Source of the DNA: a virus
Lineage: Duplodnaviria > Heunggongvirae > Uroviricota > Caudoviricetes
Length of the DNA: 34,937 bases
IMG/VR virus record: IMGVR_UViG_2571042690_000022
Direction: 5' to 3' (one strand)
A program made the position numbers and the translations under genes. Positions 3,843 to 30,645 of the stretch are shown here, piece by piece. Each line of letters starts with the position of its first letter. Position 1 is the stretch's first letter. Below the pieces are notes generated by a model. That model saw only the letters and a list, made by a program, of their open reading frames with translations, was not told the DNA's origin and did not search any database.

Positions 3843-5009
3843 TTAAACCCCTTTGACAACGTCAGCGTTGACCTGTGGAACCCCGATTTCAGCGGCCAGA
3901 TTCATGGCGGCTATTACCAGGTTACTGACGGCCAGCGGATACAGCAGGCTGACCATATTTTTACGGTGACTTCCCGGATTGCTCAGGCGGGCACGTATGG
4001 CATCCACTGCACCGGCGTCCATAATGTCCGTCAGCTGTTTACCGGCCCGTTGCAGTTTGAACGTCAGAAATTCTTCAAGGTTATTGTCCAGAGGCAGAAG
4101 TTCGACCACCTCACAGCGCTGAACGACTTCACGGACTTCCATATTGCGTTCAGACAGTTTTGTCGCCAGTTCCGGCTGGCCAATCAGCACGATGGACAGC
4201 AGTTTTTTGAAACCGGACTCCAGCTCAAAAAAGCGTTTGAGGTGTTTCAGTGTCGGAATGGGCAGACTGTGGGCCTCCTCAATCACCAGAACGTGGCTGA
4301 ACCCCGCCTGGCTGCTGTCTTTCAGGACGCGATGCAACTGGCGAAAACGGGCGTCCTGACTGCGTCTGATGCTTTCCAGTGGTGCGATGGTACTGATAAT
4401 GGCTTCGGCAATAGCTGCTGCCTTCAGGGTTTTCCCTTTCACATCGTTGTCTTCCATAGCGATGATGTATGGCTCGATAACAATTACCGGCGCATTCTCG
4501 CGGTTGATACGTTCAGTCAGGTCGCGGCGCAGCGTGGATTTACCCGCACCGGACTCACCGATGACGGCCATAAACCCACCATGACGGGCTGTCTGGTACA
4601 GCGCCTCACGCACGTAGCGAATGTCCGGGGTGGTGAACACATCATCAGAACCCTGCATGGCTTCGTCGGCGAACGGGTCACGGAAAAGACCAAACGCTTT
4701 TTTGGTTGCTGGAAATAACACCTGTTTTTTGAGTAACATATTCTCTTCCTCACTGAGGCTCGTTTTATCTGTGGTACCCGCTGTACGGGGCGTGGCCGCG
4801 CCCTGTACAGCATCAAAACTCTTCGTTGTATCAATCCCCTGACTTTCCAGCCAGGACGCAAGACGCCGGCGCACTTCTCCGGGGCTGGTGCGGGGCCACG
4901 CGTTATGATTCACAATCTGGGCCAGCGTGGCCTCAGAAACATCGACAGCTCTCGCCACCACCGCCTGTGGAATACGGGCCTCTTTCAGTTGCTGCTTCAG
5001 TACCAGCAT
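3843..5009 (-). CDS. transposition ATPase (Mu B-like/TniB-like AAA+ protein)
   Basis: Walker A GESGAGKST, Walker B-like HVLVIEEAH, N-terminal HTH-like segment; start set to ATG 5009 (MLVLKQQ) with GAGGAGGG RBS; directly downstream of the transposase. Confidence 0.8.
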   Translation of the reverse strand: MLVLKQQLKEARIPQAVVARAVDVSEATLAQIVNHNAWPRTSPGEVRRRLASWLESQGIDTTKSFDAVQGAATPRTAGTTDKTSLSEEENMLLKKQVLFPATKKAFGLFRDPFADEAMQGSDDVFTTPDIRYVREALYQTARHGGFMAVIGESGAGKSTLRRDLTERINRENAPVIVIEPYIIAMEDNDVKGKTLKAAAIAEAIISTIAPLESIRRSQDARFRQLHRVLKDSSQAGFSHVLVIEEAHSLPIPTLKHLKRFFELESGFKKLLSIVLIGQPELATKLSERNMEVREVVQRCEVVELLPLDNNLEEFLTFKLQRAGKQLTDIMDAGAVDAIRARLSNPGSHRKNMVSLLYPLAVSNLVIAAMNLAAEIGVPQVNADVVKGV

Positions 5010-5019
5010 GTTTCCCTCC

Positions 5020-6789
5020 TCAGTTGCCGTTAACAATGCTGATAACACTGCTGCGGGCCGGTGTGGTCAGCGTGGCCATGACTTCATCCAGTGCGGCTTC
5101 CGGTACGCCGTCCGGGTACTGTGCCGTTAACTGGCGGTAATGTTCCGGCGTCCAGGTAAGGCCGTCGGCGCTGAACTTATCGCGCAGGGCTTTCGCGGCC
5201 TCCACATGAGTCATGGGACGTTGTTCAGTGCGCGGCCCGCGTACGTCAGAGGCCTGACCACGCTTCGGCATATAGGCCGGAAGTGTGGTGTCGTCGATAT
5301 GTTTATACGGGTCAAGCCGCCCGCCGAACGGCAGCGCCTTCGCCTTGCGTGCGGCGGCTGCATCTGCGGCGTTGTCTGTACCGGTAACCAGCGCTTCGGT
5401 TTCTTTTGCCGCCATCTGTGCCGGGGTTTCCGGCAGGGCTTTGTAACTTTCGCCAAATACCGCCGCGCCTTCAGCAAAGCCAAACTCGTTCTTTCTGACC
5501 TCTTCGACCAGGAAGAACGTCTCGTGGCCGTCCTCACCGGTCAGAACCACCTGTGCCACATCGCTGCGCCATGGGTTACGGGTAATCATCAGTTTTTCAC
5601 CAACCAGTACGCCCGGTACCGTTGATACGTCAAATTCAGTGCCCCGGAACGAGACACGAAGTTTTGGCGTGACTTTGCGGAGTTCTGGTGCCGCCACAGC
5701 CAGTTCACGACATACCTCAACGGAAGGCGCTTTTTTCAGCTGCTCAGCAGTAATCTTCAGCCAGATATCCGTGCGGGTTTTACCGTGGCGGCTGTGAACA
5801 GCCGTGGCGTTAAAGTGGCTGCGCCATTTCGCGGCCAGCGCGTTGAGTTCTTCCAGACTGTGAACCGGCCGGAACTTCAGACCCGGCTCCAGCTTGCGTT
5901 CGATAATGTCACGCGCCTTTTCCACCTGTCCGGTGGCGCGGGCGTTATGCGGCTTGTGCGCTATCAGGTCGATGCCCAGTGAGCGGCACATGTTTTTCGT
6001 CATACCCGCGGTGTTTGCCGAGCCGGGGTCGAGATAGAGTATTTTCGGCACGCCGTGCAGCACGTCTGCGCCGCCACGCTCCTGCATGGCGTTGATAAGC
6101 ACAGAACACAGGTTCTCACCTGATTCCGCGCCCGTCACATACTCAACGTAAATCCAGCCGCTGGCATGGTCGGTAATCTCGTAACTCCACACGCGGTCAC
6201 TGGCGATACGGGCAAGGTTAGCGGGCTTGTTCTTGTAGAACTTCGCGCTGTCCATCACCTGCAGCCCTTTATGTCCATTGCTCAGGTAGTAAAGCGTGCA
6301 GAGTGAGGCGTCAATCTGCCAGACATGATTGGGATGCAGACTGGCCACTTCGGTATGTGGTGCAGGGGCATCCAGTTGTTCCGGGTGCAGGCCATAGTTA
6401 CGCAGAGCACGGCTGATGGCATCTTCAGACAACGGGAAAAACTCACTGGTGGTTTCATCTGTTCTGCCTGCGGTGATAAAGCCGTTAGCCCGCAGGGTTT
6501 CCACTGCATCTGCGATGGAATAGAGACGCTTACCGTTCTTGCGGGTGGCCTCACGCAGTGTGGCAGATATCAGCGCGGCTTCGTCGCGGGTCAGGGCGCT
6601 GCGCCCGGCATCGGCGCGTTTTTTGCGTTTATCAGTCACAGATACCTCCTTCAGCCTGCGCAGCAGAGTGGCGCGGGACATGCCAAGTTCAGCACAGGCA
6701 GCGTCGTATATTGCACCGCGTTTACCATGCCCCGCGTCACGTGCCGCGCGGGCTGTTTCAACCAGTTTTTCAGTCAGTGCCGGGGTCAT
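5020..6789 (-). CDS. DDE transposase (Mu A-like)
   Basis: 589 aa; candidate DDE residues in WQIDAS, YLDPGS and GQVEKA; gene order ner-like, A, B as in transposable phages. Confidence 0.9.
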   Translation of the reverse strand: MTPALTEKLVETARAARDAGHGKRGAIYDAACAELGMSRATLLRRLKEVSVTDKRKKRADAGRSALTRDEAALISATLREATRKNGKRLYSIADAVETLRANGFITAGRTDETTSEFFPLSEDAISRALRNYGLHPEQLDAPAPHTEVASLHPNHVWQIDASLCTLYYLSNGHKGLQVMDSAKFYKNKPANLARIASDRVWSYEITDHASGWIYVEYVTGAESGENLCSVLINAMQERGGADVLHGVPKILYLDPGSANTAGMTKNMCRSLGIDLIAHKPHNARATGQVEKARDIIERKLEPGLKFRPVHSLEELNALAAKWRSHFNATAVHSRHGKTRTDIWLKITAEQLKKAPSVEVCRELAVAAPELRKVTPKLRVSFRGTEFDVSTVPGVLVGEKLMITRNPWRSDVAQVVLTGEDGHETFFLVEEVRKNEFGFAEGAAVFGESYKALPETPAQMAAKETEALVTGTDNAADAAAARKAKALPFGGRLDPYKHIDDTTLPAYMPKRGQASDVRGPRTEQRPMTHVEAAKALRDKFSADGLTWTPEHYRQLTAQYPDGVPEAALDEVMATLTTPARSSVISIVNGN

Positions 6790-22392: not shown

Positions 22393-22643
22393 TGAAAGAA
22401 TACCGCTATTCCGGCCCGGCCAGCGGCGTCACGCTGTCGGACGGAACCGAAATCCTGCTCTGGCCGGGGAAGACGGTTTCCCTGCCGGAGGAGCATGACT
22501 ACGTGAAGGTACTGGTGGCGCTGAAACATCTGACGCCGGTACCTGAAGAGACTAAACCCGCCGGCACACCGGCTGTGCAGTCACCAAAGCGCAGAAGCAG
22601 CAGTGACAGCGAAGTGAAAACGGAGGACACCCATGGCAGCTAA
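22389..22643 (+). CDS. hypothetical small late protein
   Basis: 84 aa with low-complexity C-terminus; directly upstream of the tail sheath. Confidence 0.45.
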   Translation: MMKEYRYSGPASGVTLSDGTEILLWPGKTVSLPEEHDYVKVLVALKHLTPVPEETKPAGTPAVQSPKRRSSSDSEVKTEDTHGS

Positions 22644-24060
22644 CTATCTGCATGGTCCCGAAACCATTGAGGTGGAAAACGGTGCCCGCCCGGTTAAAAC
22701 GGTGAAATCTGCCGTTATTGGCCTGATTGGTACCGCCCCGATGGGGGATGTCAATACGCTGGTACAGTGCCTGTCTGAGAAAGACGCAGCGGCATTTGGC
22801 AGCCAGTTCACCGGCTTTACCATTCCGCAGGCGCTGGATGCGATTTATGACCATGGTGCAGGCACCGTTCTGGTCATTAACGTCCTCGACCCGGCGAAAC
22901 ATAAAACGGCGATCGAGGATGAGGTGGTTACCTTTGACAAATCGACAGGGCAGGCCAGACTGGCGCATCCGGTTGTCGCTAATGTGGTGGTGAAAAACAG
23001 TGAAGGCAGCACCACCCACACGGCGAACACGGACTACCGTGTTGATGCGCAGGCGGGTGTGCTCACGAACCTGGGCAAGGCTATTGAGGCCGGTGGCAGC
23101 GTGAAGGTGAGCTATGAGTACGCGGACCCGTCGAAGGTGACTGCGGCGGACATCATCGGCGGGGTGAACAGCGCCGGAAACCGAACCGGCATGAAGCTGC
23201 TTAACGACAGCTTCAACCTGTACGGCTATTTCGCCAAAATTCTGATTGCGCCGGTGTTCTGCACCCAGAAGAGTGTCGCAGTTGAGCTTATCGCCATGGC
23301 AGAGAAGCTGGGCGCGGTAACCTACATTGATGCGCCTGTCGGTACCACCTTTGCACAGGCTCTGGCAGGTCGTGGCCCGGAAGGCACCATCAACTTCAAT
23401 ACCAGCTCCGACCGCGTCCGTCTGTGCTATCCGCATGTGAAGGTATATGACCCGGTGACAAACACAGAGCGTCTGGAGCCGCTCAGCCAGCGTGCAGCAG
23501 GTCTGCGTGCCAGAGTCGATCTGGACAAGGGCTACTGGTGGTCATCCTCCAATCAGGAGATTCTGGGGATCACCGGCGTGGAGCGCCAGCTGTCCGCGAT
23601 GATTGATGACCCGCAGAGTGAGGTGAACCTGCTTAACGAACAGGGGATCACCACGGTATTCAGCAGTTACGGCAGCGGCCTTCGTCTGTGGGGTAACCGG
23701 ACGGCAGCATGGCCAACGGTCACCCATATGCGTAACTTTGAGAACGTTCGCCGCACCGGTGATGTGATCAACGAGTCCATTCGTTATTTCAGCCAGCAGT
23801 ACATCGACATGCCGATTACTCAGGCGCTGATTGATGCACTGACGGAGTCGGTCAACGCCTACGGTCGCAAAATGACTGGTGATGGTGCGGTACTGGGCTT
23901 CCGTTGCTGGTTTGATCCGGCCCGCAATCCGGAGACGGAGCTGGCCGCCGGGCACCTGTTGCTGAGCTACAAATATACGCCACCACCGCCGCTGGAGCGA
24001 CTGACGTTTGAGACTGAGATCACCTCGGAATACCTGTTAACCCTGAAAGGGGGCAACTGA
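22633..24060 (+). CDS. tail sheath protein (Mu L-like)
   Basis: 475 aa; size, position before the tube gene and conserved C-terminal region typical of contractile tail sheath. Confidence 0.85.
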   Translation: MAANYLHGPETIEVENGARPVKTVKSAVIGLIGTAPMGDVNTLVQCLSEKDAAAFGSQFTGFTIPQALDAIYDHGAGTVLVINVLDPAKHKTAIEDEVVTFDKSTGQARLAHPVVANVVVKNSEGSTTHTANTDYRVDAQAGVLTNLGKAIEAGGSVKVSYEYADPSKVTAADIIGGVNSAGNRTGMKLLNDSFNLYGYFAKILIAPVFCTQKSVAVELIAMAEKLGAVTYIDAPVGTTFAQALAGRGPEGTINFNTSSDRVRLCYPHVKVYDPVTNTERLEPLSQRAAGLRARVDLDKGYWWSSSNQEILGITGVERQLSAMIDDPQSEVNLLNEQGITTVFSSYGSGLRLWGNRTAAWPTVTHMRNFENVRRTGDVINESIRYFSQQYIDMPITQALIDALTESVNAYGRKMTGDGAVLGFRCWFDPARNPETELAAGHLLLSYKYTPPPPLERLTFETEITSEYLLTLKGGN

Positions 24061-24581
24061 TGTCAAAGATTGAGATAAACCGCATCACGAATGCCAACAT
24101 CTATCTGGATGGTACTAACCTGCTGGGACGGGCTGAGGAAGTTAAACTCCCCGATGTCTCCATGATTATGCAGGAACACAAGGCGCTGGGGATGGTGGGT
24201 AAGGTGGAACTCCCGGCTGGTTTTGACAAACTGGAAGGCGAAATCAAATGGAACAGCTTTTACCGCGATGCGATGCTGTCTGCCGCGAACCCGTACAGGT
24301 CGCTGGCACTGCAGTGTCGTTCCAGCGTCCAGCGCTACAGCTCGCAGGGGCTGATTGACGAAATCCCGCTGGTCACCTTCCTGACGATTATGTTCAAGAA
24401 GAACCCGCTGGGGACGTTCAAACAGCACGAGAACGCCGAGTTCTCCAGTAGCTTCACCTGCACGTATATCAGACAGGTACTGGATGGTGAAGAGCTGCTG
24501 CAACTGGACTATCTGGCCAACATCTTCCGGGTCGGCGGTGTTGATCAACTGACTGACTACCGTATCAATATCGGGGGCTGA
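24060..24581 (+). CDS. tail tube protein (Mu M-like)
   Basis: 173 aa immediately after the sheath with overlapping start. Confidence 0.8.
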   Translation: MSKIEINRITNANIYLDGTNLLGRAEEVKLPDVSMIMQEHKALGMVGKVELPAGFDKLEGEIKWNSFYRDAMLSAANPYRSLALQCRSSVQRYSSQGLIDEIPLVTFLTIMFKKNPLGTFKQHENAEFSSSFTCTYIRQVLDGEELLQLDYLANIFRVGGVDQLTDYRINIGG

Positions 24582-24962: not shown

Positions 24963-25298
24963 ATGTCACAGACCCCATCCGATACTTTTAAATTGTCTTA
25001 TCCCTTCACCACTGCTGCAGGCACCAGAATTGAGCTGGTTGAACTGAAACGCCTGACGGTAAAAGACCTGAAGCAGGTGCGCAAAATCAGCAAAAACCCG
25101 GCAGACTGGGACGAACCGCTGATTGCCCGCAGTACTGGTCTTCTCCCGGAGGATCTCGACAATATGGATCTGGCTGATTACCTGCAGTTACAGAAACGAT
25201 TTCAGCTCATCACGGGGATGGGTGAGAGCAACCAGGGCGCTGACGCAGGCGCAGGGGCTGCTGGCGAGATGGTTCCGGTTTCAGCCGGGGGAGATTGA
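24963..25298 (+). CDS. tail assembly chaperone (G-like ORF)
   Basis: 111 aa between tube and tape measure, overlapped by a +1 frame ORF, the conserved two-ORF chaperone arrangement of tailed phages. Confidence 0.5.
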   Translation: MSQTPSDTFKLSYPFTTAAGTRIELVELKRLTVKDLKQVRKISKNPADWDEPLIARSTGLLPEDLDNMDLADYLQLQKRFQLITGMGESNQGADAGAGAAGEMVPVSAGGD

Positions 25299-25380
25299 TG
25301 CCCTCGATACTGACGATCTGGAGATGTGGCTGGAGCAGGCTGAAGAGCAAATCAAAAGCGAGTACGGCGACAAATCATAG
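25123..25380 (+). CDS. tail chaperone frameshift extension (GT-like), +1 frame
   Basis: +1 frame ORF overlapping the chaperone 3' end; a GGGGG run at 25287-25291 three codons before the chaperone stop could mediate a +1 slip; exact site unverified. Confidence 0.4.
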   Translation: MPAVLVFSRRISTIWIWLITCSYRNDFSSSRGWVRATRALTQAQGLLARWFRFQPGEIDALDTDDLEMWLEQAEEQIKSEYGDKS

Positions 25381-25455: not shown

Positions 25456-28407
25456 ATGTCGGGACAGTTTTCAGTCGGCGTTGTTATCGGCGGGATGATT
25501 GGCAGCACATTCCGTTCTGCAATGAGCGGTACCCGCCGTGCGCTTGATTCCCTGAGCGATACCTCACGCCGCCTGCAGGAACGTCAGAACGCTTTAACCC
25601 GTGCAACAGAACGTTATGGTCAACTGGGTTCTTCCCGGATGCAGCATCTCAACAGCGAGCTGCTGCGGGTAAGCCGCACCATGGAGCAAATTGAGCGCCA
25701 GCAGCGCCGTCTGTCAGCGGCATCCGCTACCAGTGATGCGCTGAAAGCTAACCGCATGGCGCTGTATGGTCAGGGGATTGAAGCGTATGGCATGGCACAG
25801 ACTGTTTATCATACGGTTTCCCCTGCCGTTCAGCAGTCCATGTCTTTTCAGGACAAAATGATTGATATGTCGATCACCGCAAAATATGACAATAAAACGC
25901 GGGATGCACTTGCCGGACAGATAAAAGGCTGGGCGCTTAAATACAATCAGTATCAGGATGAGCTGCAGGAGGCGATGGGTTCACTCATCAGCGACAATAT
26001 TGATAATGTGTCAGATATCGGTTTTCTGATGCCGGATATTGCCCGCGCGGCAACGGCAACACGCACGTCTGCTCAGGACTGGGCAAAAGTGGCCGCAGTC
26101 TGGCAAAACTCCCTGAAAGGCGCGGCCAGAGATTTTGGTGCCGTTCAGAATATTATGGCTTATGCCGGTGACCAGGGGTCATTTGAAATCCCGGATCAGG
26201 TCAAGTGGATGCAGTCCCTGGCCCCAATGATGGCGGGTATTGCCAGTGGAAAAGAGGCTGTTGCTGAAATCGGGGCCAGTCTCCAGATAGCAAAAATCGG
26301 TGCAGGTTCCACCGACGAAGCAGCCAATAATTTTAAAAACTTTCTTACCAAAATTTTTGCCCGCGATACTCAGAAACAGTTTGCTGATCTGGGTATTGAT
26401 TTGCAGGGATCTATTGCGAGTTATAAAGCTGCGGGGATCTCTCCGATTGAAGGGATGTTGAGTGTTATAGAACGTTACCTCAATGCCAAAAGCCCCGAAG
26501 CGCTGGCCGGCTTCAAATCAGCCATGAAAATAAAGAATGATACGGCAAGAGATGAGGCACTTCAGGCTCTGGCGAAAAACTTTGGTCTGGGCGATATGTT
26601 CGCGGATATGCAGGTCATGGCATTTATCCGCCCGATGCTGGCCAACATGGACAGATATCGAGAGATCCGTGCCGGTGCTCTCAGGGCTGCGGATAACGAT
26701 TTGCTTGCCAGTGCTTATGATCAGCGGCTGAAATCTCCCCTTGAAGCCACTAAAACACTTATGGTCAGCAGTCGCGATCTGGCAATTACGCTGGGCGATC
26801 AATTAGCTCCATCTTTTATTTCTCTGACTCAGGACTTGCTCCCACTCATTCAGGGGACAAAACACTGGGTGGCGACTCACCCGCAATTTGTCAGTGGGGC
26901 TTTTAAGCTCATCAGTGCGCTCCTTGCGATTAAGATAGCGACTGTTGGTCTCAAACTGGGGCTGAATCTCCTTATTTCCCCCTTTGTGAACGTCTGGAAA
27001 ACTGCTGTTTTACTCCGGACCAACTGGCATCGACTGACTACCGCACTCGGAGAAGGTGGCAAATTACGCTGGCTTGTCACTGGATTCAGCCGACTGACCA
27101 GCGGAGGACTGAAACTCAGCAAAGTTCTGGCGGGCAGCCTCGTTCGCGGTTTTATGAGCGCTGCACGTGCCGTTCTCTGGATTGGGCGAGCGCTGATGAT
27201 GAATCCCATCGGTCTCGTTATCACCGCTGTCGCGGCAGCAGCTTACCTTATCTACCGCAACTGGGGGGCAGTCAGTGGCTGGTTTAAACAGCGCTGGGCT
27301 GACATTCAGGAAGCCTTTAACGGCGGTATCGCGGGAACTGGTAAGCTGCTGATTAACTGGTCGCCGGCAGGCCTGCTCTATAAAGCCTTTGCGGCTGCGC
27401 TGAAATATTTCGGCGTTACTCTGCCGGCAAAGTTCACCGACTTCGGTGGCCATCTTATCGACGGTTTGATTAACGGTATCAAAAACAAATGGGGGTCGCT
27501 CAAATCCAGTGTAACCGGAATGGGTGACAGCATCAGTAGCTGGTTTAAACAATGCTGGGCTGACATTCAGGAAGCCTTTAACGGCGGTATCGCGGGAACT
27601 GGTAAGCTGCTGATTAACTGGTCGCCGGCAGGTCTGCTCTATAAAGCCTTTGCAGCTGCGCTGAAATATCTTGGTGTTGATCTGCCGGCAAAGTTTACCG
27701 ACTTCGGTGGCCATCTTGTCGATGGTCTGATTAACGGTATCAAAAACAAATGGGAGTCGCTCAAATCCAGTGTAACCGGAATGGGCGACAGCATCAGTGG
27801 CTGGTTCAGCGAAAAGCTGGGCATTCATTCGCCGAGCCGCGTGTTTATGGGCTTTGGTGACAATATCGCGCAGGGGGCCGCCATTGGCCTGCAGCGGACC
27901 ACTCCGCTTGCAGCTCTGGCCGGGCAGCGAATGGCCAGTGAACTGCTCCCCAGAATGCCCGTGAGCATTCAGGGGCCAGAAATACGGGATAACACTTCAG
28001 GTGTTCGCTTCAGTATGCCGTTGCCCGATATCAATGGGTTTATGTCGTCTGCTAAAAATGCGATCGGAGCCGTAATCAATAGTTTGTCTTCCATGCCCGC
28101 TATTCCGCTCTCCACCCGGGCATCGATTTTACCAGGGCAACGTCTGGCAAATGAGATGACACCGGATGTTCCCCGTATCCCCTCGCCTGAAATCCTGGCT
28201 GCCGGATATTCAGGCCGTGGTGCAGCTGCAACCGGCGGTGGAACGTCTGGTGGTATCCAGGTCAGCTTTAATCCTCAGTTTTTCCTCAATGGCAGGGAAA
28301 CCACAGCGCCTGCAGGACTGACTGGTGCCCTGAATATGAGTCTGCATGAGCTGGAAAAAATGCTGGAGCGTCTGCTGGCTCAGAAACAACGTAAGGAGTA
28401 CCGCTGA
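25456..28407 (+). CDS. tail tape measure protein
   Basis: 983 aa, largest gene; helical/Ala-rich composition; position after the chaperone pair; contains an internal 87-aa tandem duplication. Confidence 0.85.
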   Translation: MSGQFSVGVVIGGMIGSTFRSAMSGTRRALDSLSDTSRRLQERQNALTRATERYGQLGSSRMQHLNSELLRVSRTMEQIERQQRRLSAASATSDALKANRMALYGQGIEAYGMAQTVYHTVSPAVQQSMSFQDKMIDMSITAKYDNKTRDALAGQIKGWALKYNQYQDELQEAMGSLISDNIDNVSDIGFLMPDIARAATATRTSAQDWAKVAAVWQNSLKGAARDFGAVQNIMAYAGDQGSFEIPDQVKWMQSLAPMMAGIASGKEAVAEIGASLQIAKIGAGSTDEAANNFKNFLTKIFARDTQKQFADLGIDLQGSIASYKAAGISPIEGMLSVIERYLNAKSPEALAGFKSAMKIKNDTARDEALQALAKNFGLGDMFADMQVMAFIRPMLANMDRYREIRAGALRAADNDLLASAYDQRLKSPLEATKTLMVSSRDLAITLGDQLAPSFISLTQDLLPLIQGTKHWVATHPQFVSGAFKLISALLAIKIATVGLKLGLNLLISPFVNVWKTAVLLRTNWHRLTTALGEGGKLRWLVTGFSRLTSGGLKLSKVLAGSLVRGFMSAARAVLWIGRALMMNPIGLVITAVAAAAYLIYRNWGAVSGWFKQRWADIQEAFNGGIAGTGKLLINWSPAGLLYKAFAAALKYFGVTLPAKFTDFGGHLIDGLINGIKNKWGSLKSSVTGMGDSISSWFKQCWADIQEAFNGGIAGTGKLLINWSPAGLLYKAFAAALKYLGVDLPAKFTDFGGHLVDGLINGIKNKWESLKSSVTGMGDSISGWFSEKLGIHSPSRVFMGFGDNIAQGAAIGLQRTTPLAALAGQRMASELLPRMPVSIQGPEIRDNTSGVRFSMPLPDINGFMSSAKNAIGAVINSLSSMPAIPLSTRASILPGQRLANEMTPDVPRIPSPEILAAGYSGRGAAATGGGTSGGIQVSFNPQFFLNGRETTAPAGLTGALNMSLHELEKMLERLLAQKQRKEYR
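27273..27806 (+). repeat. near-perfect 261-bp in-frame tandem duplication inside the tape measure gene
   Basis: Unit beginning ...GCTGGTTTAAACA recurs with 261-nt offset (27301 vs 27562), a handful of mismatches; protein WFKQ(R/C)WADIQEAFNGGIAGTGKLLINWSPAGLLYKAFAAALKY... repeated. Confidence 0.85.
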
Positions 28408-29291
28408 TGTTTGCCGTACTGGGTGATATTGAGTTTGAGCTGATTACCTACTGGGACGGCTTCGAGGCCACGTTCGGCGTCGATTATGCGGAGCATGCCC
28501 GCATCGGGGGTAAGCCTGGTCTGCAGTTCGTCGGCGACAGGCTGGACGAAATCCAGATAACTCTGGTTTTCCATCAGCATTATTGTGTACCCGATGTGGA
28601 GCTGGCGAGACTGCGAACAGCCATGAAAGCCCATCAGGCACTGGCGCTGGTCTTCGGCAACGGTGACTATCGCGGCTGGTTCGTGATCACCGATGTGACT
28701 GCAACCAGCGAGCAGACTGACAGTACCGGCAACGTGCTGGCTGTCAGTGCCACCGTGTCTCTCCGGGAATACACCGGTGACCCGAAAAATCCTCTGCAAC
28801 CACCGGCAATACGCACGAAGCTCCCGGGTGTCGGGGCGGTCTCCGGTGCCATACCTTCACCTTCAGGGGTGGCGCAGTTCATCCGCAACGGCGTCAACTA
28901 TGCGAAACAGGCGCAGTCTGTACTCCAGACCACTATCAGCGCCGTTCGGGTGACACAGAAAATGAAGGATAACCCCGTTGTCGCACTGACCCGTGTGCCG
29001 GGGCTGATGAGCGGACTGGGTAATATCTCCGGGGCTCTGGGGAAAAGTGTTCCGGCGTTTAACGCACTCTCTGAATCCATGCCCGATGCCATCAGTCTGG
29101 CCAGAACAGCCAGCGAAGCAGCCACGTATGTACAGCAGGCACAGTCTGCGCTGAGTGGTGTGGACAAAAGAAATATTGCAGGTGCTCTGGATACCGTTTC
29201 CGGGCAGCTTAACGCCGTCGGCACAGCATTCAACCGCATGTCTCCGGGATTAAGTGCAATGGCCGCCAGAATACTGACGAGGAGTGTGTGA
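28407..29291 (+). CDS. tail protein (Mu N / DNA circularisation protein-like, short form)
   Basis: 294 aa immediately after tape measure; N-terminus MFAVLGDIEFE typical of this position in Mu/P2-type tails; assignment by synteny. Confidence 0.55.
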   Translation: MFAVLGDIEFELITYWDGFEATFGVDYAEHARIGGKPGLQFVGDRLDEIQITLVFHQHYCVPDVELARLRTAMKAHQALALVFGNGDYRGWFVITDVTATSEQTDSTGNVLAVSATVSLREYTGDPKNPLQPPAIRTKLPGVGAVSGAIPSPSGVAQFIRNGVNYAKQAQSVLQTTISAVRVTQKMKDNPVVALTRVPGLMSGLGNISGALGKSVPAFNALSESMPDAISLARTASEAATYVQQAQSALSGVDKRNIAGALDTVSGQLNAVGTAFNRMSPGLSAMAARILTRSV

Positions 29292-29503
29292 TGTTTCTTG
29301 AACATGTTACCCGTGACGGAGAGCGCTGGGATTCGCTGGCATGGCAGTACTACGGTGACCCGCTGGGCTATCCCCGGATTATTGCCGCCAATCCGCACGT
29401 GGCCATCACGCCGGTGCTGCCCTCCGGGCTGTTGTTACTGATCCCGGTGATTGAGGCTGAAGAAGCCCGTACAGAAGAGGATATTGCCCCATGGCTGAGA
29501 TAA
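29288..29503 (+). CDS. tail protein X-like (LysM-like)
   Basis: 71 aa; WQYYGDP...IIAANPHV...LPSGLLLLIP pattern resembles P2 gpX-type proteins (recollection). Confidence 0.55.
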   Translation: MMFLEHVTRDGERWDSLAWQYYGDPLGYPRIIAANPHVAITPVLPSGLLLLIPVIEAEEARTEEDIAPWLR

Positions 29504-30645
29504 ACAGCACTGCGCAAGTCACATCAGCGTTAACCGGCGTCAGCGATGTGCTGACACCGGTGTTCACTCTGTGGTATCTGCAGAAAAACATCACCTCTGA
29601 TATCGCGCCTTATGTCACCCGTGTGACCTGGAGCGATAACATCAAAAATGAGTCCGATACCATTGAGGTGGAGCTGGACGACACCGATGGCCGCTGGCTG
29701 GATAAATGGTATCCGGGCAAGGGTGACACGCTGACGCTGAAAATGGGCTATCAGGGCGAGAAGCTGCTGTCCTGCGGTACGTTCTCTATAGACGAGATCG
29801 AAGTGAGTTCGCCCGCTTCCGTTGTTTCTATCCGTGGGGTGGCCACCTCGGTTAACAGTGCCCTGCGGACTAAAACCAGTCGTGGTTTTGAGAACACCAC
29901 GCTGGCAGCTGTTGCGGGGCGGATTGCCAGAAAGCACCGGCTGAAACTGGTGGGCAGCATTGAGTCCATCAGAATCGACCGGGTGACCCAGTATGCTGAA
30001 ACCGACGTGGGTTTTCTGCGCCGGCTGGCCAGCGAGTATGGTTATGCAGTGAAAGTGGTCAGTGACCAGCTGATTTTTTCTCATCTGGCCACACTGCGCA
30101 GTCAGGAGCCGGTCAGGCAGTTAAAACCGCAGGATGTGGCCCGCTTTTCCCTGCGTGACACCATCAACCGGGTCTATAAATCTGCAAAGGTAAAACACCA
30201 GAAAAGCAGCAGTAAAAAACTGATCGTCTACGAAGCTGATGGTGGTACCCGTGAAAGCGACAAAAAGCTCAAAGGTGGTAAGGTTACCAGCGCTGACTCA
30301 CTTAAAGTTAACAGCCGCGTCAGCGACCCGGACAGTGCCCGGATTAAAGCGGATTCAGCACTGGCCAGACATAACGAATACCAGCAGAACGGCTCCCTGA
30401 CGCTGACGGGAACACCTCAACTGACAGCAGGCAACAAAATTGAACTGGTGAGTTTTGGGCAGTTATCCGGGCCATGGCTCATAACCACTGCCCGCCATGC
30501 GTTTGACCGTAACAGCGGCTACACCACAGAGCTGGAAGTGGCACGGGGGCCAGTCACAAGAGGGAAAAAACAAAAAACTCAGAAACTCACGGTTTATCAC
30601 CCGGATGGCAGTACATCGACGGTGATTAAGGAGAAGAAAAAATGA
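29491..30645 (+). CDS. baseplate hub protein (gpD-like / Mu P-like)
   Basis: 384 aa; synteny before the spike protein. Confidence 0.65.
   Translation: MAEINSTAQVTSALTGVSDVLTPVFTLWYLQKNITSDIAPYVTRVTWSDNIKNESDTIEVELDDTDGRWLDKWYPGKGDTLTLKMGYQGEKLLSCGTFSIDEIEVSSPASVVSIRGVATSVNSALRTKTSRGFENTTLAAVAGRIARKHRLKLVGSIESIRIDRVTQYAETDVGFLRRLASEYGYAVKVVSDQLIFSHLATLRSQEPVRQLKPQDVARFSLRDTINRVYKSAKVKHQKSSSKKLIVYEADGGTRESDKKLKGGKVTSADSLKVNSRVSDPDSARIKADSALARHNEYQQNGSLTLTGTPQLTAGNKIELVSFGQLSGPWLITTARHAFDRNSGYTTELEVARGPVTRGKKQKTQKLTVYHPDGSTSTVIKEKKK

Follow-up and report, generated by a model that had tools for sequence, protein, structure and literature searches.

A probable old duplication of an 87-residue module in the tape measure gene of EC958 Phi2-type prophages and its variable copy number

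Sheath and tube proteins polymerise to the length that is set by the tape measure protein (TMP). In lambda gpH, duplications and deletions made in the laboratory reportedly change tail length in proportion (experiments attributed to Katsura and Hendrix 1984 and Katsura 1987), and in-frame length changes in the TP901-1 TMP (attributed to Pedersen 2000) and in T4 gp29 (attributed to Abuladze 1994) are likewise said to cause proportional changes in tail length. All three are laboratory constructs whose tails were measured, whereas the series described here is a natural allelic one that is known from sequence alone. According to the ruler rule a residue accounts for 0.145-0.15 nm, and deletions and duplications scale tail length (Mahony 2016, PMC5099701).

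Duplication and loss of TMP units have been described (Belcaid, Bergeron and Poisson 2011, PMC3271669), and gain or loss of units is an ordinary, already known way for phages to alter tail length. Those units and the TP901-1 repeat region resemble the array reported here in being in-frame tandem repeats whose number varies between related phages and whose history can be read from substitutions shared by paralogous units; they are regarded, as here, as natural facilitators of duplications and deletions that alter tail length. However, they comprise 11 or 18 residues with a Trp/Phe periodicity and stem from siphophages, whereas the TMP unit of the EC958 Phi2 type is 87 aa long, highly conserved and without clean 11/18 aromatic spacing, occurs in one to four copies and resides in a contractile-tailed transposable prophage. 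The TMPs of myoviruses typically lack tandem repeats according to a 2026 survey (PMC13585406), the reference list of which cites T4 gp29 for contractile tails.

Here, we analysed a viral DNA stretch of 34,937 nt (IMG/VR record IMGVR_UViG_2571042690_000022; "the window"). Our explanation, to which we assign a probability of roughly 80%, is that an 87-residue module of an EC958 Phi2-type TMP was duplicated in frame long ago, now varies in copy number and lengthens the ruler.

The tape measure gene and its prophage

The tail module of the window and the hydrophobic segments of the TMP are located as follows.

22633-24060, + strand: tail sheath (Pfam PF04984/PF17482)
24060-24581, + strand: tail tube (Pfam PF04985)
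24963-25298, + strand: tail assembly chaperone, gpE-like, upstream of the TMP gene (Pfam PF10109, E 5.5e-21)
25456-28407, + strand: TMP gene, 983 aa (Pfam PF10145, TIGR01760; RefSeq name on identical copies)
26887-26979, + strand: first hydrophobic TMP segment, aa 478-508 (Kyte-Doolittle)
27190-27255, + strand: hydrophobic, transmembrane-like TMP segment, aa 579-600, directly upstream of the repeat (Kyte-Doolittle)
28407-29291, + strand: gpU-like tail protein, downstream of the TMP gene (Pfam PF06995, E 7.4e-39)
29491-30645: gpD, downstream of the gpU-like gene

Residues 159-340 of the TMP match Pfam PF10145 PhageMin_Tail (E 1.3e-20, 74.6 bits vs a cut-off of 33.2) and residues 119-493 match NCBIfam TIGR01760 tape_meas_TP901 (E 2e-16, 59.9 bits vs a cut-off of 28.8), and identical copies carry the RefSeq label 'phage tail tape measure protein'. 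The gene lies where a TMP gene is expected, after the gpE-like chaperone and before gpU/gpX/gpD, with sheath and tube upstream, and no gene of the module is longer; gpX is annotated between gpU and gpD in the homologous loci L002-L011. Both family matches and the position within the tail module thus confirm the tape measure identity that an earlier note on this DNA had proposed. The hydrophobic segments were identified by a Kyte-Doolittle scan with a 19-residue window, in which they peak at 1.8-1.9. A PDB sequence search with the TMP returned no homologue, and an NCBIfam search of the two-unit segment gave noise only. The AlphaFold2 single-sequence model of aa 575-830 consists mostly of helices, but at a pLDDT of 40 and a pTM of 0.20 it is uninformative.

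The prophage that carries the TMP gene is transposable, BcepMu-like and of the E. coli ST131 EC958 prophage Phi2 type, and has a P2-type contractile tail module. An ORF at 5020-6789 (- strand) contains an rve integrase core domain and an ORF at 3843-5048 (- strand) matches AAA_22; this combination of a DDE transposase, a MuB-like AAA+ ATPase and a P2-type contractile tail module marks the element as a Bcepmuvirus-like (Mu-like) phage, which presumably transposes. The nearest named phage, PhiKM, is 99.3% identical, is classified as Bcepmuvirus, and has a TMP annotated as 'Mup42'. The gene order sheath, tube, gpE/E' chaperone, TMP, gpU, gpX, gpD is the same as for TMPs of the P2 gpT/Mu gp42 type (BcepMu-like, genus Bcepmuvirus), but single-copy relatives in other genera lack a tandem 87-aa array. 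In the literature on PhiKM and on TMP repeats of BcepMu-like E. coli prophages we found no paper describing this array, and the EC958 genome paper covers the tail-fibre inversion of Phi2, not its TMP.

Anatomy of the repeat and the antisense frame

Tandem Repeats Finder reported one array at 27272-27806 with a period of 261, 2.0 copies, 93% matches, 0% indels and a score of 958. The array and the ORF opposite to it are composed as follows; derived positions are relative to single-copy outgroups.

27272-27532, + strand: repeat unit 1, first-type 'A', derived at unit positions 6, 101, 138, 148 and 223
27533-27793, + strand: repeat unit 2, last-type 'B', derived at unit positions 21, 122, 140, 143 and 186
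27794-27806, + strand: 13-nt partial third copy TCAGTGGCTGGTT, which codes for S-G-W-F and equals the first 13 nt of unit 1
27064-27828, - strand: antisense 254-aa ORF over the repeat, a shadow ORF and not a gene (stops in homologous units)

The two 261-nt units differ at 16/261 positions, corresponding to 93.9% identity without indels, and an adjacent repeat of this length and identity is far beyond chance. A length of 261 nt equals 87 codons, both units are in the frame of the 983-aa ORF (25456-28407), and the tandem duplication of 261 bp or 87 aa that had been noted earlier in the tape measure gene was recovered; its previously given end at 27806 is explained by the 13-nt partial copy that closes the array. 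In the in-frame register the 87-codon units begin at 27271 and 27532, and the encoded proteins differ at 7/87 residues. The sense-frame comparison of unit 1 with unit 2 yielded a dS of 0.167 and a dN/dS of 0.24 at a nucleotide divergence of 6.1%. A profile built from 55 distinct units identified two real copies only and no ancient, degenerate further copies in the window TMP. The module is located in the C-terminal third of the TMP and is among its most conserved parts.

The many antisense ORFs across the repeat had been dismissed in the earlier note as artefacts, and for the ORF at 27064-27828 this holds true. Its frame is interrupted by stop codons in 39/129 homologous units, including 97%-identical alleles, whereas the sense frame contains stops in 0/129, and an NCBIfam search found no family match (noise only). 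Comparison of dN/dS between units (0.32 antisense vs 0.24 sense) did not discriminate between the frames, whereas stop-codon conservation did.

Copy number, assembly and age of the duplication

The region is present in 634/5426 complete E. coli genomes. About 450 of these carry two units, ~100-125 three units and 13 + 3 (~16) a secondary single unit; these counts are estimates, derived from rows with a single piece, from the lengths of spans and from spread samples of 60 out of the 634 rows, since BLAST coverage cannot separate one-unit from two-unit subjects. Classification by BLAST coverage summaries had been rejected, as overlapping pieces were joined and one- and two-unit subjects both appeared as 100%. 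At the protein level TMP alleles of 896, 983, 1070 and 1157 aa correspond to one, two, three and four units and differ in steps of whole 87-aa units, the four-unit form being represented by a protein of 1157 aa in the protein database (P0132). Genomes recorded with one unit include IPCEC48, AVS0947 and TUM14759, whereas EC958 and JJ1886 have two units and ZH063 and SK1144 three.

Among the single and internal units of these alleles are hybrids of the A and B types. In L002 the only unit has an A-type 5' part and a B-type 3' part with a switch at unit positions 101-122, as in L048 and L066; that of L113 and L114, alleles which elsewhere match the window TMP without a single mismatch, switches at 21-101. 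Conversely, the middle unit of the three-unit allele L003 is B-type in its 5' part and A-type in its 3' part with a switch at 67-75, a position also found in L043, and the hybrid unit of L004, L005 and L045 switches at 6-21. The variety of crossover points argues for repeated unequal crossing-over. With in-register units, varied copy number in near-identical alleles and hybrid units, the array has the features of a variable-number tandem repeat, as which we classify it on the basis of these comparisons.

The repeat disturbs assemblies and annotation, and some records fit an expansion or collapse artefact: a sequencing gap at the repeat divides the TMP of PhiKM, the array of IMG/VR contig L044 includes an N as well as a return to the sequence that precedes the repeat, and P0103, the one-unit allele of the window type, switches units inside the longest stretch common to both (79 nt) and is found on 435 mostly draft contigs, yet in only 3/~366 complete genomes. 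One-unit versions, which are frequent in draft assemblies, could therefore be short-read collapses. As a general account of the repeat or of its copy-number variation, however, an assembly artefact is barely credible. Dozens of the complete genomes listed, which come from independent projects and include PacBio-finished EC958, carry the two-unit sequence with 100% identity, and matches to the region at >= 99% occur in 363 complete E. coli genomes, indicating that the array of this record did not arise in assembly. Moreover, collapse can create neither three- and four-unit alleles nor distinct hybrids and private substitutions, which limits the artefact reading to some one-unit records. An array of at least seven units in L044 was rejected as a misjoin with N, and the odd partial duplications of P0006 (1084 aa) and P0053 (995 aa), each on a single contig, were not trusted. 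RefSeq labels one three-unit gene a pseudogene although it is intact. Given this mislabelling and a repeat that breaks or collapses short-read assemblies, copy-number calls for the TMP gene from draft ST131 genomes are unreliable, a caution for genomics.

In other genera and in IMG/VR contigs nearly all scorable TMP homologues (35-90% identity) possess exactly one unit. The duplication is thus derived and lineage-specific rather than family-wide, other Enterobacterales TMPs carrying the module once. This comparison with homologous TMPs, suggested in the earlier note, agreed with a derived state, but the second inference drawn there, that near identity of the copies reflects a recent event, had to be abandoned, as the diverged A/B pair is shared across E. 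coli lineages. We compared multi-copy alleles (the window, L003-L008, L012, L035-L046 and L052) and found that in all of those examined first-type and last-type units are set apart by ~10 fixed substitutions, at unit positions 122, 138, 140, 143, 148, 186, 223 and others, in unrelated E. coli lineages and in two- and three-unit alleles alike. Outgroups divide these differences ~5:5, i.e. about five derived changes per unit type. Furthermore, the units diverge by 6.1%, whereas alleles diverge by ~0-2% over the rest of the TMP gene, with the exception of one 300-nt mosaic block. As the A/B differences are shared and outgroup-polarised and unit divergence exceeds allele divergence, the duplication predates the diversification of this prophage group, which corrects the dating: 94% similarity of the copies points to an old, shared duplication.

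A recent duplication found solely in this genome or in the ST131 clone, with little time since the event, would account for copies that are 94% identical without indels and for a two-unit state that is confined to close E. coli relatives and missing from other genera. Nevertheless, we regard it as highly unlikely, as the identical A/B types and differences occur in IAI39, CE10, ST69, cattle, poultry and environmental strains and IMG/VR contigs, each unit has accumulated ~5 derived substitutions relative to the outgroups, and the units differ from each other several-fold more than the alleles do elsewhere in the gene.

Alternatively, the units might have diverged before they were joined, the array arising in one step by unequal recombination between two related phages with single-copy modules ~4-6% apart; in that case unit divergence would not date the event. 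TMP genes are visibly mosaic, with a 300-nt block directly upstream of the repeat that differs by ~20% between allele types and N-terminal 1500 nt that are ~50% different in short-type alleles sharing the C-terminal module, suggesting that recombination between diverged alleles is common in these genes. We nonetheless consider such an origin unlikely: among ~90 single-copy units examined 0 carried a pure A-type or B-type signature, all showing either the consensus of the outgroups or the structure of an A-5'/B-3' hybrid, for which deletion is the best explanation. Even then, the array would be common to hundreds of genomes and hence not recent.

Returning to duplication within one lineage, these comparisons show a single event, which is placed in the common ancestor of the TMPs of the E. 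coli clade. Single-copy outgroups already carry a shared TCAGT..CTGGTT (S-x-W-F) on either side of the unit, and, judging from present-day sequences only, one illegitimate exchange or replication slip between these short direct repeats is likely to have produced the first tandem copy. Since then each copy has fixed ~5 substitutions under purifying selection, and the hybrids show that the 261-nt units now undergo unequal homologous crossing-over or slippage. Such exchange has led to three and four units on at least two independent occasions and, in the opposite direction, to contraction to one unit.

Predicted consequences for tail length

By analogy with lambda gpH, the TP901-1 TMP and T4 gp29 each 87-aa unit would lengthen the ruler by ~13 nm. 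Assuming that a ring rises by roughly 4 nm, one unit would correspond to about three more tube and sheath rings, and alleles of 896, 983, 1070 and 1157 aa should give stepwise tail lengths. Both values, 0.15 nm per residue and a step of 13 nm, are extrapolations here, and additional units may be less than fully extended. The conservation of the 87-aa module is compatible with some role besides length measurement, which the module may have. As these four lengths occur naturally in genes that are otherwise ~99-100% identical, the series offers a clean test of the ruler rule beyond lambda, T4 and TP901-1; its practical value is modest but real.

We also considered ring quantisation, with 87 aa as 3 x 29 and whole tube rings per unit. 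Indels within the family are 22, 71, 188 and 235 aa long and thus no multiples of ~27-29, and the aromatic residues of the 87-aa unit follow neither an 11/18 nor a 29-aa period, so that this idea was rejected as unsupported.

Finally, it is conceivable, though rather doubtful, that the one- to four-unit series is a maintained polymorphism of tail length, generated in ~13-nm steps by unequal crossover in near-identical prophages of pandemic ExPEC lineages and selected to match the thickness of the host envelope or capsule, with a module that is perhaps dosage-sensitive, for instance in the transit of DNA across membrane and periplasm. As for selection, both units are constrained by purifying selection (dN/dS 0.24), and alleles with two and three units have persisted in many lineages; these are the only observations that bear on it.

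The tape measure gene and its repeat

The repeat lies in the ORF at 25456-28407, which matches Pfam PF10145 (aa 159-340) and TIGR01760, confirming its earlier identification as the gene for the tape measure protein (TMP). The features referred to here are:

22633-24060, tail sheath gene, upstream of TMP
24060-24581, tail tube gene, upstream of TMP
24963-25298, gpE-like chaperone gene, upstream of TMP
25456-28407, + strand, TMP gene (983 aa)
27272-27532, + strand, repeat unit 1
27533-27793, + strand, repeat unit 2
28407-29291, gpU gene, downstream of TMP
29491-30645, gpD gene, downstream of TMP

Tandem Repeats Finder detected one array, at 27272-27806, with a period of 261, 2.0 copies, 93% matches, no indels and a score of 958, and a repeat search gave two units with 94% identity to each other, in agreement with the coordinates and the description of the tandem duplication in the earlier note. 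By direct count the units differ at 16 of 261 positions, and the array closes with 13 nt of a third copy, TCAGTGGCTGGTT, which repeat the first bases of unit 1. The 261 nt equal 87 codons and both units, with in-frame starts at 27271 and 27532, lie within the frame of the TMP ORF, as had been claimed. A minus-strand ORF of 254 aa (27064-27828) spans the repeat, its first codon position pairing with the sense third position as read from the coordinates. Among 129 homologous units, stop codons interrupt the antisense frame in 39, 97%-identical alleles included, and the sense frame in none, and no family match was found for the antisense ORF. This pattern marks it as a shadow ORF that the duplication has extended, bearing out the suggestion that the antisense ORFs are artefacts.

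A transposase of the rve type and a MuB-like AAA+ protein are encoded on the minus strand of the window. In the listed complete genomes of ST131 (EC958, JJ1886 and others) the TMP matches at 100% identity, and it is 99.3% identical to that of the nearest named phage, Escherichia phage PhiKM (classified Bcepmuvirus). The EC958 copy of the gene (1013310-1016261) adjoins the invertible tail-fibre segment (1005540-1007607) of the BcepMu-like prophage Phi2 (Forde et al. 2014, PMC4134206), and on this positional evidence we take the window to be Phi2. A relative of the region is present in 634 of 5426 complete E. coli genomes. The gpE-like chaperone ORF stops at 25298 and is overlapped by an ORF in another frame that reaches 25380, the counterpart of which in homologous loci is labeled 'GpE family phage tail protein'; the arrangement (24963-25380) is the one typical of tail assembly chaperones made by programmed frameshifting, a mechanism that is putative here.

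Origin and age of the duplication

The comparison covered three sets of alleles: L002-L011, L113 and L114 from complete E. coli genomes, L012-L034 from one genome per species, and L035-L112 from IMG/VR. A search with the 87-aa unit identified exactly one unit in essentially all homologues at 35-90% identity, including those of Intestinirhabdus, Trabulsiella, Mixta, Pantoea, Pseudocitrobacter, Xenorhabdus, Brenneria, Dickeya and many IMG/VR contigs. In the homologue search, arrays with two or three tandem 87-aa units were confined to close E. coli-type alleles, and a profile of 55 distinct units detected no further degenerate copy in the window TMP. Thus, in line with the earlier note, the duplication is derived and not shared by the whole family.

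One and the same set of sites separates first-type (A) from last-type (B) units in every multi-copy allele. Relative to the outgroup consensus, A has derived states at unit positions 6, 101, 138, 148 and 223, and B at positions 21, 122, 140, 143 and 186. The two window units diverge by 6.1% (dS 0.167, dN 0.041, dN/dS 0.24), elsewhere in the gene these alleles differ by ~0-2%, one 300-nt mosaic block excepted, and the nearest single-copy units are 8-11% away from either window unit. As judged from these comparisons, the shared A/B differences and a unit divergence above that of the rest of the gene show a single duplication event that long preceded the diversification of the present alleles, contradicting the previous view of a recent event, and purifying selection on both copies since the duplication is likewise shown at this level. 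The original event would have proceeded via short S-x-W-F-coding direct repeats (TCAGT..CTGGTT) flanking the module in single-copy relatives.

Copy-number classes, unequal exchange and assembly

TMP length classes among fetched loci (L) and database proteins (P) step by whole units.

1 unit, 896 aa: L002, L048, L066, L113, L114, P0103
2 units, 983 aa: window, L006, L007
3 units, 1070 aa: L003-L005, L045
4 units, 1157 aa: P0132

L043 has three units too, but its longest ORF is shorter than 1070 aa. In L003 and L043 the middle unit has a B-like 5' part and an A-like 3' part, with the switch at positions 67-75, and in L004, L005 and L045 it switches at positions 6-21; these different switch points therefore indicate that the array expanded independently at least twice. 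In L002-type alleles the single unit combines an A-like 5' part with a B-like 3' part (switch at 101-122), and its site pattern identifies it as a secondary deletion rather than the ancestral state, because derived states of both A and B are present. L113, L114 and P0103 correspond to the window TMP minus exactly one unit, with no mismatches outside the unit, and their switch falls within positions 21-101, the longest stretch common to both units (79 identical nt). On the evidence of their mosaic sites, the hybrid units show repeated unequal exchange in the array. Estimated counts in complete E. coli genomes are ~450 for two units, ~100-125 for three units, 13 for the L002-type and 3 for the window-type single unit, and ~42 for the short-type single-copy allele.

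An assembly artefact is ruled out as the source of the two-unit state, as dozens of the listed independent complete genomes, PacBio-finished EC958 among them, share the identical two-unit sequence; 363 complete genomes match the region at ≥99%. The repeat does disturb assemblies and annotation. P0103 occurs on 435 mostly draft contigs, yet in only 3 of ~366 complete genomes with the window-type allele, so that graph collapse may account for many of the one-unit calls in drafts; for L113 (IPCEC48), L114 (AVS0947) and P0103 a true deletion would be indistinguishable from a short-read graph collapse. The PhiKM TMP (L001, 3001-5866) is split by a sequencing gap, and RefSeq marks the intact three-unit TMP of ZH063 (L005, 443-3655) as a pseudogene 'missing C-terminus'. 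An apparent array of seven or more units in the IMG/VR scaffold L044 was rejected, as it contains an N and a misjoin back to pre-repeat context (4190-4215). E. coli-type TMPs with 97-99% identity are also found on short, low-coverage draft contigs of Arthrobacter (sp. GMC3/Y81; L012, L033, L034, L041), which are almost certainly E. coli DNA contamination.

Tail length and other length changes in the TMP family

The effect of in-frame TMP duplications on tail length is already known, and the protein-ruler rule is described as experimentally demonstrated for lambda, TP901-1 and T4 gp29. By this rule, with 0.145-0.15 nm per residue (Mahony 2016, PMC5099701), the tail would gain ~13 nm for each unit, rendering an effect of the duplication on tail length plausible by analogy. 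A helical, extended state of the module is putative: no PDB homologue of the window TMP was found by sequence search, and an AlphaFold model of the TMP segment had a pLDDT of 40. Tandem units that undergo duplication and loss have been reported for TMPs (Belcaid 2011, PMC3271669; Mahony 2016); compared with these, the E. coli module is larger (87 aa), highly conserved and located in a contractile-tailed transposable prophage, whereas TMPs of the contractile-tailed morphotype are usually without tandem repeats (PMC13585406). Our literature search found no paper describing the E. coli array; the module is documented here as an allelic series of one to four copies across E. coli.

A 71-aa C-terminal segment (27937-28152, TMP aa 828-899) is present in the window and other long alleles and missing in the 821-aa alleles L009-L011. 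The motifs that bound it, GQRMASE (aa 823) and GQRLANE (aa 894), are spaced by 71 aa, and the ~21 residues following each motif resemble each other, which suggests either an indel bounded by the motif or a duplication that is older and has diverged. Upstream of the repeat, L008 (strain AHB7) and P0099 have a 22-aa in-frame deletion (LVTGFS...LAGS, 27073-27138) resulting in a two-unit TMP of 961 aa, with 51 member sequences in its 90% cluster. Independent larger tandem duplications over the module occur in two TMPs more distant from the window lineage, L096 (3020-3883; 564-nt period, 100% identity), a metagenome contig whose duplication may be an artefact or of very recent date, and L108 (2950-3954; 705-nt period, 89% identity). 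The TMP family has thus changed length in frame repeatedly.

The pattern of divergence among alleles further characterizes the TMP as a recombinational mosaic. Two allele types diverge by ~18-22% in a block directly upstream of the repeat (~26950-27250, gene nt ~1500-1800), and short-type alleles have the C-terminal third in common (4-7% divergence) and are ~50% different in the N-terminal 1500 nt.
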